This document shows, one piece after another, positions 40,964 through 54,272 of a stretch of DNA of 64,000 nucleotides. This DNA is from Candidatus Harrisonbacteria bacterium. Its GTDB lineage: Bacteria > Patescibacteriota > Minisyncoccia > UBA6257 > 02-FULL-45-10c. The stretch covers positions 26,084 through 90,083 of the forward strand of contig JACROC010000004.1 in assembly GCA_016214655.1 (NCBI GenBank), read 5' to 3'. A program made the position numbers and the translations under genes. Position 1 is the first letter of the stretch; each line of letters begins with the position of its first letter. The notes below the pieces were generated by a model, which was given only the letters and a program-made list of their open reading frames with translations, was not told the DNA's origin and made no database searches.

Positions 40964-41023
40964 AAAATAATACACGGATTTTAAAAAAATGTAATTAAGA
41001 ATGAATACTAACTTAAGAGGTCA

Positions 41024-44372
<3,349 letters not shown>

Positions 44373-48445: not shown

Positions 48446-50782
48446 ATGGCAGAAATAACAGAGATTGGCCACACTAACGTTACTTTAGCCCGAACCCTTG
48501 GTCCTGGGTCTATTATTTTATTGGGCATCGGCTCCCTCTTGGGAGGCGGCATTTTTACTTTACTGGGCCCGGCAGCAGGATTGGCTGGTCCGGGGTTATT
48601 CTTAGCCATGATTCTGGGAGCTGGAATAGCCTTTTTAAACCTGCAAATGTATCTCGCCCTCGGCACTACTTTTCCAGAAGCCGGCGGCGGTTATTTATGG
48701 GTAAGAAAGGGACTTGGAAATTTCCAGGGATTTTTAGCGGGTTGGCTTAGCTGGTTTGCGCACGCGGCCGCCTGCGGCGTGTATGCTTTAAGCTTCGGAT
48801 TTTATGCTCACCAGCTTTTTAAAATCGCCGGCTTCAATTTAAATCTTAGTCTAGACGGAATATCCAACGAAAAACTTATTGCTGCTTTGGTTGTTTTAAT
48901 TTTTGGATATATTAATTGGCGGGGCACTCAAACCACTGGCCAAGCAGGCAACTACATTACCAGCGGCCTACTCGGCATCCTGGCACTCTTTATTATTTCT
49001 GGCATTTATCGGGTACTTACTGCCCCCATCCCATTAGCGAATTTCACCCCGCTCTTGCCATCGGGATTATTAGGAATAGTGGCCGCTGCCAGCTTTTTCT
49101 ACATTGCCTTTGAGGGATCGGAAATACAGGTCCAAGCCGGCGAAGAAACTAAGAATCCAACCCACGACTTAAAAGTGGGATTAATAACTTCTTGGGCCGT
49201 CGTATCTGTTATCTACGTTTTAATAAGCTTAGTAATCATTGGGGCCACTCCCGCCACAGACAAGCCGGTGTGGGAATTGCTTGGTTCTTTTGGAGAAGGC
49301 GCCATCGTTGAAGCGGCCCATAATTTTATGCCGCTTGGCGGAATAATAATGATTATCGGCGGATTACTGGCAAACCTTGCAGCGCTGAATGCCACCATTT
49401 ATTCTTCTAGCCACGTCGCCTTTGCCCTCGCCAGAGATAAAAATATCTGGACCCACTTTGCCCAAATTCATAATAAAAACTTGACTCCGCATTTAGCGGT
49501 AATCGTATCGGTAATTCTAATCACCGCCATGGTACTTACCCTCCCGCTTTTTGATGTAGCCAGCGCAGCCAGCTTACTTTTCGTGCTTTTATTTTTACAG
49601 CTGAACATTGCGGGCACTCAAATTCACTTTAAATTCCCAGATATCAAATGGAATTATAAAATCCCTTTTTTCCCGCTCACCCCGGTATTGGCGATTATTC
49701 TCTATGCCCTGCTGGCTATCACAATGCTAAAAGTTAACCTGAATGCCTGGGTAGTAACAGTTATCTGGACGCTTTTAGGATTAGTGAATTATTTAAGTTA
49801 TGCCGCAACTCAAAGCCGGGAACAATTTGAAAAAGAAATCGTATATGAAGAAGCGGTCCGGGTCGGCCCGAAAACCGGAAAAAGAATTCTCATGCCCATT
49901 GCTCCAGAAACCACCAGCGAAGAACTACGCAATCTTTCGGAAGCAGCCTTCACCTTAGCCAGCGAATTCAGCGGGGAAATCATCGCAGTCAAAATTCATC
50001 AAGTACCGCAACCGCTTATGCTGTTAGATGGAGCCACCATGGCCCATGACCGCCAAATCTTTGAAAATTTAAAAAATTGGGTGAATGAATGGAATGCCAA
50101 AATGCCCGACGTGAAAGATGTCAACCTGCATAGCCTGCTTCTAGTAGGCCGCGACATAGTCCAAAGTATTTTAGATGTAATTAAAATGGAAGATTGTGAT
50201 CTCCTTTTACTTAACTGGGAAGGGTACACGAAAACTAAAGGTACAATTTTTGGAAGTAAAATCGATCGTATCTTACGCGAATCAAAATGTGATCTGATTG
50301 TTATTAAAAATCCAAAACCCATTACTTCTTTAATACTGGCGGCTCATCCAGCCGGAGACAATCCATATCTTTCCTTAATTGGCGAAATTTTTACTGCTTT
50401 TAAGAATTACTATAAGCCGAAAACCGAGCTTTTAAGTATTTTAAATTGGGACACGCCGTTTTATCTAAAGCCAGATCCGCAAATATTACTCAAACCGCTT
50501 CAGCTTAAAAGAAAAGATTTTGATGAAGTTGAATTCTTTAAAGCGAAATCAATCACTACCGCTATAATCGACGAAGCCAAAACCAAAGAAGCAAGCATGG
50601 TTCTCATCACCGCCTCCAGACCGAAACTACTCGGAGAAATCCGTTTTGGCAATATTCCTGAATTACTTGCCAAGCACTCGGATACTTCATTAATGATCGT
50701 CCGAGGCCATCAAAATGTTGCTGAGGCATTCTGGGAAAAGATAATAAAAAAAGCTAGTTTTACAAAAAAAGAAGCAATATAA
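48446..50782 (+). CDS. APC-family amino acid permease fused to C-terminal universal stress protein (UspA-like) domains
   Basis: 778 aa. The N-terminal two-thirds has about 12 TM helices with an amino acid permease signature. The C-terminal third has two Usp-like alpha/beta modules. Confidence 0.75.
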   Translation: MAEITEIGHTNVTLARTLGPGSIILLGIGSLLGGGIFTLLGPAAGLAGPGLFLAMILGAGIAFLNLQMYLALGTTFPEAGGGYLWVRKGLGNFQGFLAGWLSWFAHAAACGVYALSFGFYAHQLFKIAGFNLNLSLDGISNEKLIAALVVLIFGYINWRGTQTTGQAGNYITSGLLGILALFIISGIYRVLTAPIPLANFTPLLPSGLLGIVAAASFFYIAFEGSEIQVQAGEETKNPTHDLKVGLITSWAVVSVIYVLISLVIIGATPATDKPVWELLGSFGEGAIVEAAHNFMPLGGIIMIIGGLLANLAALNATIYSSSHVAFALARDKNIWTHFAQIHNKNLTPHLAVIVSVILITAMVLTLPLFDVASAASLLFVLLFLQLNIAGTQIHFKFPDIKWNYKIPFFPLTPVLAIILYALLAITMLKVNLNAWVVTVIWTLLGLVNYLSYAATQSREQFEKEIVYEEAVRVGPKTGKRILMPIAPETTSEELRNLSEAAFTLASEFSGEIIAVKIHQVPQPLMLLDGATMAHDRQIFENLKNWVNEWNAKMPDVKDVNLHSLLLVGRDIVQSILDVIKMEDCDLLLLNWEGYTKTKGTIFGSKIDRILRESKCDLIVIKNPKPITSLILAAHPAGDNPYLSLIGEIFTAFKNYYKPKTELLSILNWDTPFYLKPDPQILLKPLQLKRKDFDEVEFFKAKSITTAIIDEAKTKEASMVLITASRPKLLGEIRFGNIPELLAKHSDTSLMIVRGHQNVAEAFWEKIIKKASFTKKEAI

Positions 50783-50807
50783 AAACCTCAATTACTTGAG
50801 GTTTTTA
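50783..50807 (+). terminator. rho-independent terminator after the permease gene
   Basis: AACCTCAATTACTTGAGGTT followed by TTT. Confidence 0.5.
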
Positions 50808-50821
50808 ATAACAATACTCGT

Positions 50822-51275
50822 CGGACTGCTGGGAATCGAACCCTTGGACCTTATTTTAATAATAGCTCTCGCCGCGTTGTTAGCCAAAATGAAATAGATC
50901 AAGGCATTCCGACGAGCTGGTGGTTTATACCACAACGAGGAGGAATAACGAAGAGATATTTCATTTTGGCAACAACCCTTTGGGACGCGCCCATTTTATT
51001 ACATCACTTCGTTACTCGTCGGAAAGGTAGCTATAGCTACGATTTCCTCCTCGCGCCTTGCGCTAATAATAAAATAGGCAGCGTCGCGGCAGAGATTAAT
51101 ATTAAAATAAGGTCCTACCTCACACACCCGAAGTCCTGTTAGAAGTTGATATGTCGGGCTGCTGGGAATCGAACCCAGCCCTCGCGCACCCGAAGCGCGT
51201 ATACTACCGATATACTACAGCCCGGTAAAACTTCTAACGGGACAAGCGTGCATACTGCCGGTATACTACAGTCCG
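50822..51275 (-). other. fragmented second tRNA-Pro-like gene enclosing an intact tRNA-Pro (5' piece, middle piece and 3' piece separated by two insertions)
   Basis: The 5' piece (51275 to 51244) is CGGACTGTAGTATACCGGCAGTATGCACGCTT. The middle piece (51132 to 51111) is TTCGGGTGTGTGAGGTAGGACC. The 3' piece (50850 to 50822) is GGTCCAAGGGTTCGATTCCCAGCAGTCCG. The outer acceptor strands CGGACTG and CAGTCCG are perfectly complementary. The three pieces are homologous to parts of the intact tRNA-Pro. Confidence 0.4.
51155..51224 (-). tRNA. tRNA-Pro(CGG); CCA not encoded
   Basis: Reverse complement CGGGCTGTAGTATATCGGTAGTATACGCGCTTCGGGTGCGCGAGGGCTGGGTTCGATTCCCAGCAGCCCGA. It has the Pro-typical C1:G72 pair, anticodon loop TTCGGGT and T-loop TTCGATT. 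Confidence 0.8.
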
Positions 51276-51307
51276 ATAAACTCATTTATACTATAATAAA
51301 GGTAAAT

Positions 51308-52063
51308 ATGAAAAAACAACAACCCCTGAAAAAAACTATTCAGAAAATTAAAGAAAGGGGGCAAGAAGAACGCCGGAAAATCAAGAAATTGATCATCAAA
51401 AGAAAAGATGATTTTTTGACTGCGCTGGAAAAAAACTGGCGCGACTGGGCTTTACAGCCGCTGACTAAACTTTTTTACAGAATCGGAGTTACCGCCAACC
51501 AGATAACTTATCTCGGATTTATTTTAATCGGCATGGCAGTCTGGATGTATCTCCAGCAAATTAATTTTCAATGGCAATTACTAATCCTAATCCTCGCGGG
51601 CATTAGCGACGCCATTGACGGCCCAACTGCCAGAAATAATAACAACGTAACCGTCCTCGGCACTTGGCTGGATCATATACGAGATGGAGCGCTTATGATT
51701 TGGGGATCTTATTTGATATACAAATATAATCTTTTAGACTTGGAAACTATCTTAATAATTTGGGGGCTGCAACTGGTGCTAATTTGGATCACGCTTAAGG
51801 ATTTCTTAATTCGTTATCTTAGGGGGCTGCCCAGCGAAGAAGCGGAAGAATTAGTCAGTCATTTTTCTTTAGATAACTTGCAAGCATCAGTTATCGGCCG
51901 GCTTCAATTTTTTTGCTGGACCGTGGGATATTTACTGCTATTGCTTTTTCTTATTACCGCCAATACCTACTTATTAACCATTGGCCAAACCCTCATCTTC
52001 TTGGAAATTCTATTTACCGCACTAAACATTTTAGAAAGCTACCAAAAAGTTGTGCCGAAATAA
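51308..52063 (+). CDS. CDP-alcohol phosphatidyltransferase family protein
   Basis: The ORF nominally starts at 51146 but overlaps the tRNAs; the likely start is ATG 51308 (MKKQQ). The CDP-OH transferase motif is DAIDGPTARNNNNVTVLGTWLDHIRDG (DGx2ARx8Gx3Dx3D-like). Confidence 0.7.
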   Translation: MKKQQPLKKTIQKIKERGQEERRKIKKLIIKRKDDFLTALEKNWRDWALQPLTKLFYRIGVTANQITYLGFILIGMAVWMYLQQINFQWQLLILILAGISDAIDGPTARNNNNVTVLGTWLDHIRDGALMIWGSYLIYKYNLLDLETILIIWGLQLVLIWITLKDFLIRYLRGLPSEEAEELVSHFSLDNLQASVIGRLQFFCWTVGYLLLLLFLITANTYLLTIGQTLIFLEILFTALNILESYQKVVPK

Positions 52064-52730: not shown

Positions 52731-54272
52731 TTAAATAAAATACTTTTTCTTAATCTCTTCCTCAATTCTCCCCTGCGCTTCGTCGGCGGATTTTTTGGCA
52801 AACTTAGCCATTTCTGCAAGCTGCTTTTCTTCCATCTGTCCCAAAGCTTTGATTCGCTCAATTAATTTTTCCTTTTCATTTAAAATTGGGTCATCTAATA
52901 CCTCTTCTAAAAGAATAGACAAAACAAAACCGATTTTAGGTCCAGGCTGAATATTAGCTTCCCGCATCACGTCCGCGCCATTCACTTTCAGCATTTTTGC
53001 GCTGATTGGGTCTTGGCTGACTTTTTCAACTCGGAATTTCAAATGGCGCAGACGATATGGTTGCGCTTTAGGCACGCCAGACCCGATCCGGTCTGCTTCC
53101 CGCAATTTGAATAGATCATCAATATTTTCTTTCCCAACCCTGCGAAGCAAGCGCCTCGCACCGGCATCGGTAAACGTTTCCGGATCATAAACAAACATAT
53201 GTTCCCGGACTAATAAAGCAATTTTTTCAACATCCTCGCGGGAAAAATGCAATCGGTCTAAAATTTCTAAGGCCATTTTCTCTCCAACTACCTGATGGCC
53301 GTAAAAAGTGGAGTCTGGTCCATCTCCGCGCTTTGCGCGAGGCTTTCCGACATCATGCAAAAGTGAAGCTAATCTGAGATGTAATGGAAAATTCTGCTTA
53401 ATCGCATAATCCAGTGACCGGACATTATGTTCAAAAACGCTATAAATATGATGCTTGTTTTGTCCCATCTCAACGCCTTCGGTTAATTCCGGAAGGGCTT
53501 GCTTTAGTAAGCCTAACTCCTGCATTTTCCGGATTCCGTCTGCGGCGTTCTCGGTCATTAATAATTTAGACAATTCATCCCTGACTCTTTCTTTAGAAAT
53601 AAATTCCAGCAAACCGGAGTGCTTTTTAATTGCCTCTCCGGTTTCTGCTTCAATCGTAAAACCAAGCTGAGCCATAAAACGCACCGCCCTCATCATTCTT
53701 AAGGCATCCTCTTGGAATCTTTCTTCCGGATTGCCGACTGCCCGGATTATTTTATTTTTTAAATCATTTTTACCGCCGTACGGATCAACTAATCCGTATT
53801 CATTCGTATCATTAGCACGCATTCGTATATTAGTATCACATCTCAACGCCATGGCGTTGATAGTAAAATCTCTGCGAGATAAATCTTCTTCTACGGTTTT
53901 TGCAAATCTGACTTCGTCCGGATGGCGTTTATCGGTATATTTCCCTTCCAGCCTATAAGTTGTGATTTCTACGATTTTTAAAGCAGAGTCTTCAGAGCCA
54001 GTTTTTACTCCGACAGTGCCGAACTGGTTTTCGTAAACACTTTCCGGAAATAACTTCTGTAACTCCTCCGGTTTAGCATTTGTGGCCACATCCCAGTCCT
54101 TCGGTTCTTTGCCAATCAAAAGATCGCGCAGGCACCCGCCGACTAAATAGGCCTCAAAATTGGCTTTTTCTAATGCCAAGCCAATATCTAAAATTTCTTT
54201 CTTTTGCAGTTTTTCCATCTCTCTTATTTTACCCATTTCCTTAGAAATTTTTCCATATCTAAAAATTAACAT
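52731..54272 (-). CDS. cca: CCA-adding tRNA nucleotidyltransferase with HD domain
   Basis: 513 aa. The Pol-beta-like head reads GGCLRDLLIGKEPKDWDVAT. The HD domain reads HDVGK.... Confidence 0.8.
   Translation of the reverse strand: MLIFRYGKISKEMGKIREMEKLQKKEILDIGLALEKANFEAYLVGGCLRDLLIGKEPKDWDVATNAKPEELQKLFPESVYENQFGTVGVKTGSEDSALKIVEITTYRLEGKYTDKRHPDEVRFAKTVEEDLSRRDFTINAMALRCDTNIRMRANDTNEYGLVDPYGGKNDLKNKIIRAVGNPEERFQEDALRMMRAVRFMAQLGFTIEAETGEAIKKHSGLLEFISKERVRDELSKLLMTENAADGIRKMQELGLLKQALPELTEGVEMGQNKHHIYSVFEHNVRSLDYAIKQNFPLHLRLASLLHDVGKPRAKRGDGPDSTFYGHQVVGEKMALEILDRLHFSREDVEKIALLVREHMFVYDPETFTDAGARRLLRRVGKENIDDLFKLREADRIGSGVPKAQPYRLRHLKFRVEKVSQDPISAKMLKVNGADVMREANIQPGPKIGFVLSILLEEVLDDPILNEKEKLIERIKALGQMEEKQLAEMAKFAKKSADEAQGRIEEEIKKKYFI

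Follow-up and report, generated by a model that had tools for sequence, protein, structure and literature searches.

The stretch of DNA analyzed here (the window) comprises 64,000 nucleotides of contig JACROC010000004.1 from a Candidatus Harrisonbacteria bacterium (assembly GCA_016214655.1, positions 26,084 to 90,083 of the forward strand). It is bacterial, with 23S and 5S rRNA genes and eight tRNA genes identified by ARAGORN and Rfam. The locus at 51275-50821 (-) is a two-layer nested tRNA-Pro(CGG) gene, in which a complete tRNA-Pro(CGG) gene lies within the pieces of an outer one. Window coordinates are used throughout, the features of the locus are read on the minus strand, and the layout is as follows.

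51275-51246 (-): 5' part of the outer, resident tRNA-Pro(CGG), CGGACTGTAGTATACCGGCAGTATGCACGC, with acceptor 5' strand CGGACUG, the D arm and anticodon-stem 5' strand CACGC
51245-51244 (-): TT, part of the anticodon loop or of a target duplication
51243-51229 (-): left arm of the inserted cassette, GTCCCGTTAGAAGTT = GUCCCGUUAGAAGUU, inverted repeat I6
51228-51225 (-): 4-nt spacer TTAC between the left arm and the inner tRNA
51224-51154 (-): inner, intact tRNA-Pro(CGG), found by ARAGORN and by Rfam RF00005
51153-51148 (-): 6-nt spacer CATATC between the inner tRNA and the right arm
51147-51133 (-): right arm of the cassette, AACTTCTAACAGGAC = AACUUCUAACAGGAC, I6
51132-51117 (-): middle part of the outer gene, TTCGGGT GTGTG AGGT, with the intact anticodon loop UUCGGGU, anticodon-stem 3' strand GUGUG and the variable-loop start AGGU
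51115-50846 (-): 270-nt palindromic element at the border between variable loop and T stem of the outer gene, with repeats I1, I3, I5, I9, I16 and I17
50843-50821 (-): 3' part of the outer gene, GGGTTCGATTCCCAG CAGTCCG A, with 3 bp of the T stem, T loop UUCGAUU, the T-stem 3' strand, acceptor 3' strand CAGUCCG and A73
50807-50780 (-): hairpin and T run resembling an intrinsic terminator, 13 nt past the outer 3' end, I7

The three outer pieces had been recognized, in this order and with complementary acceptor strands, in a sequence-only reading of the locus, and all were present in their places: the acceptor strands pair at 7/7 positions (the 3' strand with 51275-51269) and the anticodon stem at 5/5. 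The intact gene that had been placed within these pieces was reported by both programs, the 15-bp inverted repeat around it is I6 with 14/15 positions paired, and the element put at ~260 nt proved to be 270 nt long, with perfect internal repeats of 14 bp (I5), 10 bp (I16) and 10 bp (I17). The failure to build a canonical T stem was also reproduced, the T stem pairing at 3/5 positions. A tRNA-Pro position-weight matrix gave 44.2 bits for the outer 5' half and 25 bits for the outer 3' part, and the 466-nt region folded with a z of -10.8 against shuffles; the signal of the outer pieces is far beyond chance. As it stands, the outer gene escaped both Rfam and ARAGORN, even when the latter could assume introns as long as 600 nt. 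Deletion of both insertions in silico led ARAGORN to report tRNA-Pro(CGG), with a T stem of 3/5. Within the locus, a terminator is seen solely after the outer 3' end.

The identity elements recognized by bacterial prolyl-tRNA synthetase (ProRS) are the anticodon xGG, the C1-G72 pair and A73. The inner gene, as read from the sequence, has anticodon CGG, C1-G72, A73 and G37, it scored 56 bits against an RF00005 cut-off of 29, and ARAGORN named it tRNA-Pro(cgg); it is presumed to be the functional copy. It matches the outer copy at 60/70 positions, with compensatory differences in the acceptor and anticodon stems, and its closest alleles are those of other Harrisonbacteria (65-66/71). CCA is not encoded in it, nor in any other of these tRNA-Pro genes. 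The distance between the nest and a gene for a CCA-adding enzyme, 52731-54272 (-), is 1.5 kb, and this gene is likewise near the nest in the syntenic relatives.

The locus is flanked by an amino-acid permease gene on one side and a CDP-alcohol phosphatidyltransferase gene on the other, the latter starting 33 nt upstream of the outer 5' end, and relatives were reached by homology through both genes. For the permease, a protein encoded in a metagenome-assembled genome of Candidatus Harrisonbacteria (Patescibacteria/CPR) showed 100% identity. Permease synteny alone often reached loci with a GT87 gene between permease and tRNA, or with the tRNA elsewhere (L001-L006, L015, L053). Loci L012 (GCA_016192685.1) and L009 have a single plain tRNA-Pro(CGG) at the same position, directly upstream of the CDP-OH_P_transf gene, and L016 and L019 likewise carry a single ordinary tRNA-Pro here. 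When joined, the outer pieces matched the L012 gene at 67/70 positions, the closest pair among the ten alleles compared; the three differences are one anticodon-stem transition (C39U) and two positions at the site of the 270-nt element. The outer 5' part, taken with the TT, is identical to the first 32 nt of the L012 tRNA-Pro, and the outer 3' part matches at 23/23. Because relatives hold one plain tRNA-Pro at this site, and because the outer copy is so much closer to L012 than the inner copy is to the outer, the comparison identifies the outer pieces as the ancestral resident gene of the site in Candidatus Harrisonbacteria and the inner gene, another allele, as the newcomer. The outer layer, or shell, of the window also appears to be young, since its anticodon loop is intact and it is so close to a functional orthologue. 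The view that the outer copy is a decayed duplicate scarred by small mobile insertions was therefore correct in part: the copy is non-working and the two interruptions do behave as small insertions bounded by inverted repeats, but 'duplicate' was the wrong word for what is the resident gene.

The cassette consists of an arm, the 4-nt spacer, the complete tRNA-Pro(CGG), the 6-nt spacer and the complementary arm, and it lies exactly within the outer anticodon loop. Deletion of 51243-51131 (113 nt) regenerated CACGC-TTCGGGT-G exactly. The junctions read CACGC-TT[GTCCCG...CAGGAC]TT-CGGGT, with a direct repeat of TT (or CTT) on either side, and removal of the cassette together with one copy of this repeat restored the anticodon loop. 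The empty site in L012 and L009 is CACGCTTCGGGTG. The window arms are 15 nt long, with a duplex energy of -19.6 kcal/mol, and 12 nt of the left arm, GTCCCGTTAGAA, occur at the same junction in L007; related arms are found in L021 and L028. The cassette had no further copy in the window (BLAST) or in the other related loci (BLAST and nhmmer).

The arrangement is not peculiar to the window but is met again in other Patescibacteria. A search pattern of two tRNA-Pro 5' parts standing too close together for tandem genes matched the window, L007 and L018, as well as ten metagenome stretches (L021 to L030); among the latter, L022 and L026 are the same sequence, L027 is doubtful and the others are nests. 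One genome scan and one metagenome scan yielded about ten further nested tRNA-Pro loci, some with three, four or more layers. Locus L007 has the gene order of the window and shows a decayed outer 5' half followed by the arm start given above and an intact tRNA-Pro, without the right arm and the outer 3' part. The metagenome-assembled genome containing L018, found via a neighboring protein, has a complete two-layer nest without the 270-nt element, and its arms, GTCCTCACACCAAC / GTTGGTGTGGGGAT, are unrelated in sequence to those of the window. When tRNA-Pro halves were located with the position-weight matrix, one intact gene was preceded by 5' halves and followed by 3' halves in mirror order, and across the nests the acceptor strands of each layer matched each other. 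Two layers are present in L021 (with a further 5' fragment outside), L028 and L029, and three in L023, where the innermost gene is tRNA-Pro(GGG). Four are present in L030, with acceptor strands CGGAGTA/TACTCCG, CGGGGTG/CACCCCG and CGGAGTG/CACTCCG and a fourth shell outside these. One or more orphan 5' shells were found in L050 and L052 (both Harrisonbacteria), L022, L024 and L025 and at the tRNA-Pro(UGG) of L028, while orphan 3' shells were not seen among the loci compared. Among 72 tRNAs across these loci, duplicates of a gene's own halves flank tRNA-Pro alone (in its CGG, GGG and UGG forms), with one exception, a different scar at a tRNA-Ala.

Two of these loci have peculiarities of their own. 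The innermost tRNA-Pro(GGG) of L023 (L023:3680-3750) was reported by ARAGORN and fell short of the Rfam gathering threshold; its unusual T loop, UCCGAUU, is shared with the L030 genes. In L027 there is only a degenerate upstream fragment and no clear nest, and at L027:3427-3560 there is a long perfect palindrome, inclusive of the terminator hairpin, in which the 3' end of a tRNA-Pro(UGG) serves as one arm.

The shells become less tRNA-like with distance from the intact gene. Matrix scores dropped outward, from 40 through 37 to 31 in L023 and from 43 through 38 to 24 in L022. In at least five of the older shells the heptamer (U)GAAGGU, or a close variant of it, replaces the anticodon loop UUCGGGU, so that decoding would be impossible. 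The heptamer sites are the right junctions of L018, L021, L028, L029 and L023, together with L030:3581-3597 and L028:4870-4885 (-); a tRNA-Pro(UGG) shell has UUUGAAG, and the shell of the window retains its loop.

The arms were compared across shells. The cognate left and right arms were the best pair in 8/10 shells and the second-ranked in the other two, and the right arm of the window was the best partner for its left arm among the ten right arms tested. Mean duplex energy was -22.2 kcal/mol for cognate and -9.7 kcal/mol for non-cognate arms (permutation p ~1e-5). Eight shells were aligned over 13 pairs from the base of the helix; 90% of the 8 x 13 cells were standard pairs, a figure to be read with the caveat that complementarity itself was how the arms were recognized, and 9/13 pairs were changed on both sides. 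The covariation score was 0.77 against 0.22 in shuffles and was reached by 0/500 of them, and sliding the arm partner by one column cut pairing to 47-49%. Arm sequence thus differs between loci with complementarity retained. RNAalifold, applied to six complete two-layer units with no structure supplied, recovered all four stems of the outer tRNA (acceptor, D, anticodon and T), the helix of the arms and the inner cloverleaf; 26 of the 55 consensus pairs showed compensatory changes, and outer acceptor pair 4-69 occurred as A-U, U-A and G-C.

These results bear on whether the locus is organized at all. The nests are not an assembly artefact, because they were found in NCBI, ENA and JGI assemblies and one of them in two samples. 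It could be that an ordinary tRNA-Pro duplication was followed by random rearrangement and small insertions, with no organized element involved, and indeed the outer copy is non-functional as it is and L007 shows a visibly decayed 5' fragment. However, this is hardly credible. The copies are nested and not in tandem, the insertion is exact to the nucleotide, and nests of this architecture, complementary arms included, turned up again in ten or more independent contigs of different assemblies, with up to four or more layers; such recurrence and the statistics of the cognate arms contradict chance decay. In the sequence-only reading, relatives with a single ordinary tRNA-Pro and no fragments were to signify random decay. 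The relatives are in fact divided: the gene is plain in L009, L012, L016 and L019, nested in L018, L021, L023, L028, L029 and L030, and accompanied by 5' remains in L007, L050 and L052. Since relatives share the nested architecture or its 5' remains, the arrangement is an organized and recurrent one.

A further possibility was a real intron or split tRNA, in which the cassette and the 270-nt element would both be removed from the RNA, by self-splicing or by an endonuclease and ligase, to yield two tRNA-Pro(CGG) species. Group I introns are abundant in the tRNA anticodon loops of Patescibacteria, and RF00028 often misses them (Nakagawa et al. 2026, PMC13011429); in the window the outer pieces are near perfect, with the loop intact and the acceptor and anticodon stems kept through compensatory differences from the inner gene. 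Nevertheless, the proposal that the tRNA is spliced or split and holds a ribozyme-like intron was not supported. Rfam at E <= 10 gave no group I, group II or other intron family on 50700-51400, a negative limited by the ability of divergent Patescibacteria introns to escape RF00028 (PMC13011429), and ten related loci gave no intron family at the gathering cut-off. The 23S rRNA gene of the window, 41013-44351 (-), is 3339 nt long against a 2925-nt model and contains a sub-threshold RF00028 match at 41247-41363 (26.6 bits, E 6e-4); a divergent group I intron, of a sort that Patescibacteria often carry, probably accounts for the insertion there. RF00028, one of the checks proposed for the locus, was thus silent on the nest while giving this weak match in the genome's own 23S rRNA.

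The anatomy also disagrees with splicing. The cassette, though exactly removable, is a helix plus a tRNA and has no space for a ribozyme core. There is no bulge-helix-bulge (BHB) motif of 3-4-3 geometry; in the window the anticodon stem and the 15-bp helix are joined by an internal loop of 2 x 7, and in other loci by one of 3 x 6-7. For the 270-nt element, none of 14 x 15 junction combinations yielded a 5-bp T stem. The anticodon has been lost from older outer copies elsewhere, which show UGAAGGU in its place, and in a systematic study all Patescibacteria tRNA introns were group I and lay within the anticodon loop (PMC13011429), as known bacterial tRNA introns do, not at the border of variable loop and T stem. 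A splicing explanation is accordingly very improbable. A transfer-messenger RNA (tmRNA) or standard intron-containing tRNA was ruled out, since ARAGORN, in tmRNA mode and with introns of at most 600 nt, found the inner tRNA only. Rfam matches to the rimP leader and MicA, chance-level hits of terminator-like families on the terminator hairpin, were rejected.

The best explanation, which we favor by a modest lean and not firmly, is that a cassette bounded by inverted repeats and carrying a replacement tRNA inserts into the tRNA-Pro anticodon loop, and that the interrupted shells decay. The cassette would be a small non-autonomous insertion element, similar to a miniature inverted-repeat transposable element (MITE) or a Correia element, or else it would have spread by recombination through the tRNA halves that flank it. 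It would target the anticodon loop of tRNA-Pro and be tolerated only since it replaces the single-copy gene that it destroys. As the cargo is again a target, later insertions would hit the innermost copy and produce layers in the manner of a Russian doll. Transcription of the whole unit would start at the resident promoter and stop at the terminator (50807-50780). The arms and the outer anticodon and acceptor stems would then zip leader and trailer into a long helix, preventing the outer halves from mispairing with the inner tRNA, and RNase P and 3' processing, followed by CCA addition, would free the inner tRNA alone. The shells would be dead; they would decay, gain further hairpin insertions (in the window, the 270-nt palindrome) and be lost through recombination between the direct repeats of tRNA halves, the 3' side first. 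In the window, the 3' pair of direct repeats, formed by the outer 3' part and the 3' end of the inner gene (repeat D2), is 23/24 identical, against 31/37 for the 5' pair. With the 3' repeats more alike, loss by recombination would account both for the frequency of orphan 5' shells and for the lack of orphan 3' shells among the loci compared.

The 270-nt element replaces 3 nt of the outer tRNA at the variable-loop/T-stem border and shows no clean target duplication. Its closing stem is 31 nt long and imperfect, with the outer 19 nt 95% complementary (I1, I3), and it encloses two hairpin arms with perfect closing stems of 13 and 14 bp. No Rfam match was obtained for it, and no relatives were found in the window, in 54 related loci or in viral contigs (BLAST and nhmmer; three viral-contig scans). 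Matches to the cassette or the 270-nt element in viral contigs were seeds of 16-23 nt without extension and were put down to chance. A long structured insertion stands at the same border in L022 (~300 nt) and in the fourth shell of L030 (~85 nt). It would appear that the 270-nt element is a secondary palindromic insertion into an already dead shell, in which it broke two T-stem pairs.

The same element has an unusual internal structure. Within 50907-51053 (-), the perfect 10-mers CGAGGAGGAA/UUCCUCCUCG and UUCCGACGAG/CUCGUCGGAA pair across the two hairpin arms, and the same segments pair poorly inside their own arm, where one arm has tandem G-A mismatches and the other has U-C mismatches. As the cross-arm pairing is the better one, a fold with two four-way junctions would be possible and about as stable as the nested fold: the modeled energies are -116.5 kcal/mol for the nested fold and -103.3 kcal/mol for the partner-swapped one before its second 10-bp helix (~-16), so that the two are predicted to be nearly equal. 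The crossing 10-mers were considered as a group I-like P3/P7 pseudoknot and rejected, the helices being 10 bp long and perfect with 69 nt between them and no core match.

The inverted-repeat cassette was also weighed against a scar of the integrase type, in which a larger element with its own tRNA-Pro entered the resident anticodon loop and its body was later deleted, leaving the tRNA and short flanks. There is an archaeal precedent in Caldiarchaeum, where a recombinase-encoding element left a 5' tRNA-Thr fragment beside the replacement gene (PMC3293823). Orphan 5' shells directly upstream of a working gene are common, some loci hold long insertions between the inner tRNA and the outer 3' parts, and classic scars that duplicate the 3' end of a tRNA are present as well, in L025 and at the tRNA-Ala of L051. 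However, no integrase was found near the window locus or in the called genes of related loci, and ~ten complete shells hold inserts of just ~100-125 nt, directly abutted by both resident halves. Complementary end arms of 13-17 bp are not a product of att-site recombination, and the 2-3-nt direct repeat of the window better suits a staggered cut. An integrase-type scar is therefore a distinctly improbable origin for the nests.

The 3'-end scars themselves, at L025:163-320 (Pro) and L051:950-1040 (-) (Ala), each consist of a complete tRNA, an insert of ~95-150 nt and a second, identical copy of the final 18-20 nt of the tRNA. Insertions that target the T loop and regenerate the 3' end classically leave such scars, which represent a second kind of tRNA-targeted insertion in these genomes.

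Several observations weigh against a mobile cassette with dead shells. No copy of the cassette was found outside tRNA-Pro genes in the window and the loci compared, and related arms were met at tRNA-Pro genes only. No integrase or transposase domain was found within ~5 kb (Pfam, eight neighboring open reading frames), and no recombinase was present among the called genes of L007, L009 and L012; we infer the mobility of the cassette from its anatomy and distribution only. Covarying arms are unlike the terminal repeat expected of a transposase-bound element, which is a fixed protein-binding site, and a selected helix of RNA or single-stranded DNA fits better. One heptamer, (U)GAAGGU, is common to shells of different lineages, for which neutral decay is no explanation. 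The 5' shell and first 7 nt of the arm are 39/40 identical between L024:1729-1768 and L025:40-79, where the inner tRNAs are 89% identical and the flanks cannot be aligned; this could reflect constraint on the shell or recent transfer. Secondary insertions in shells are confined to loops. Finally, the cargo tRNAs resemble the alleles of the local lineage and do not travel unchanged with an arm type, so that old vertical inheritance, with loss in the plain relatives, could also account for the nests. Hairpin-forming D-loop insertions of 18-50 nt occur in old shells at L052:4625-4645 (-), L024:1651-1673, L022 shell 2 (~L022:1938-1970) and L028:4895-4945 (-).

One interpretation of such data, unlikely yet deserving of serious weight, is that the shells are not dead. 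The multi-layer transcript might be a selected RNA architecture, or the product of insertion acting on the exposed loops of a folded tRNA, with the shells, the arm helix and (U)GAAGGU directing the processing, quality control or regulation of tRNA-Pro. Living shells would represent a mode of building and maturing tRNA genes in bacteria without known counterpart. In a more specific form, which we regard as a minority prospect to be taken just as seriously, the shells and arms would be a tRNA-shaped pre-tRNA scaffold selected for processing or stability. It would guide how the inner tRNA-Pro is released, folded or regulated, and its counterpart would be the leader-trailer stems around rRNAs, which RNase III cuts. 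Strong covariation of the arm helix and outer acceptor stem, the retention of (U)GAAGGU at the junction of at least five shells and the constancy of the L024/L025 shell while the surrounding sequence diverges are all in its favor. So are the almost unchanged outer pieces of the window and the siting of extra insertions in D, anticodon and variable loops, where a folded tRNA tolerates added helices. However, close relatives have a plain gene at the same site, scores worsen outward, many shells lack the 3' half and the T stem of the window shell is already broken (3/5). Note also that several layers bring a scaffold no obvious gain, and that the compensatory differences may have been inherited from each shell's past as a working tRNA in another lineage.

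The two genes beside the nest differ in conservation. The permease gene, 48446-50782, is 73-84% identical to its relatives, and the CDP-alcohol phosphatidyltransferase gene, 51308-52063, is just 57-69% identical and has its best match in another lineage (L021). Given this unequal identity, the tRNA locus may be a recombination boundary.

To our knowledge, the sole interruptions of bacterial tRNA genes are introns of group I (rarely group II), apart from which such genes may have the att scars of integrated elements at their flanks. Here a complete tRNA gene occupies the anticodon loop of the gene that it apparently replaces, with complementary arms of its own and in up to four or more layers. 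No description of a tRNA gene nested within a tRNA gene in bacteria was found in the full-text literature searched. The parts are already known, namely tRNA-targeted insertion, restoration of the target by incoming DNA, small inverted-repeat elements and self-nesting; the combination is not. Should the cassette be mobile, it would be a selfish element that evades the cost of hitting an essential single-copy gene by bringing a spare, and that becomes its own next target. If instead the shells are functional, they would constitute a new kind of pre-tRNA architecture. Either way, the nests bear on tRNA annotation and completeness estimates in Patescibacteria, and they offer dated layers for the study of tRNA gene decay.

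MITEs and Correia-like or REPIN-like elements are ~100-300 nt long and non-coding, have terminal inverted repeats and give a transcript that is a long hairpin. The cassette is similar in its size, its terminal inverted repeats, the 2-3-nt direct repeat at its ends, the long hairpin predicted for its transcript and its lack of coding capacity. It differs from them in carrying a functional RNA gene of the same kind as its target, in having arms that are locus-specific and covarying, and in that a multi-copy family was not demonstrated. Twintrons and nested transposons are Russian-doll structures that arise when an element inserts repeatedly into its own copy. The self-nesting is the same here, but what repeats is a short-armed tRNA gene and not an intron or transposon whose catalytic or coding parts are known.

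Integrative elements are reportedly selective as to sublocation within tRNA genes, a preference that Williams is said to have set out in 2002. As in tRNA-targeting integrative elements generally, the incoming DNA at the nest keeps a working tRNA and displaced fragments of the resident stay beside it. In the nests, however, a complete gene of the same isoacceptor lies within 113 nt, with fragments on both sides, complementary arms and no recombinase gene. The group I introns of Patescibacteria, most of which lack a homing endonuclease when in tRNA genes, share with the nests the phylum, the tRNA anticodon loop as target and an interrupted gene overlooked by standard annotation (PMC13011429). 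The nest, by contrast, has no group I core; its insert is a 15-bp helix plus a complete tRNA that nests repeatedly, its site is 31-34 against 35/36 for the introns, and the interrupted gene is apparently replaced by the cargo and not spliced. The split, multi-intron and permuted tRNA genes of archaea are likewise broken at loops and have complementary leaders and trailers that unite the halves (PMC4390854, PMC3218864). They differ from the nests, which are found in a bacterial genome, have no BHB motif and consist of halves that surround another complete tRNA. With these differences in mind, the nests would provide debates on the origin of tRNA with a bacterial parallel to the split and multi-intron genes of archaea.

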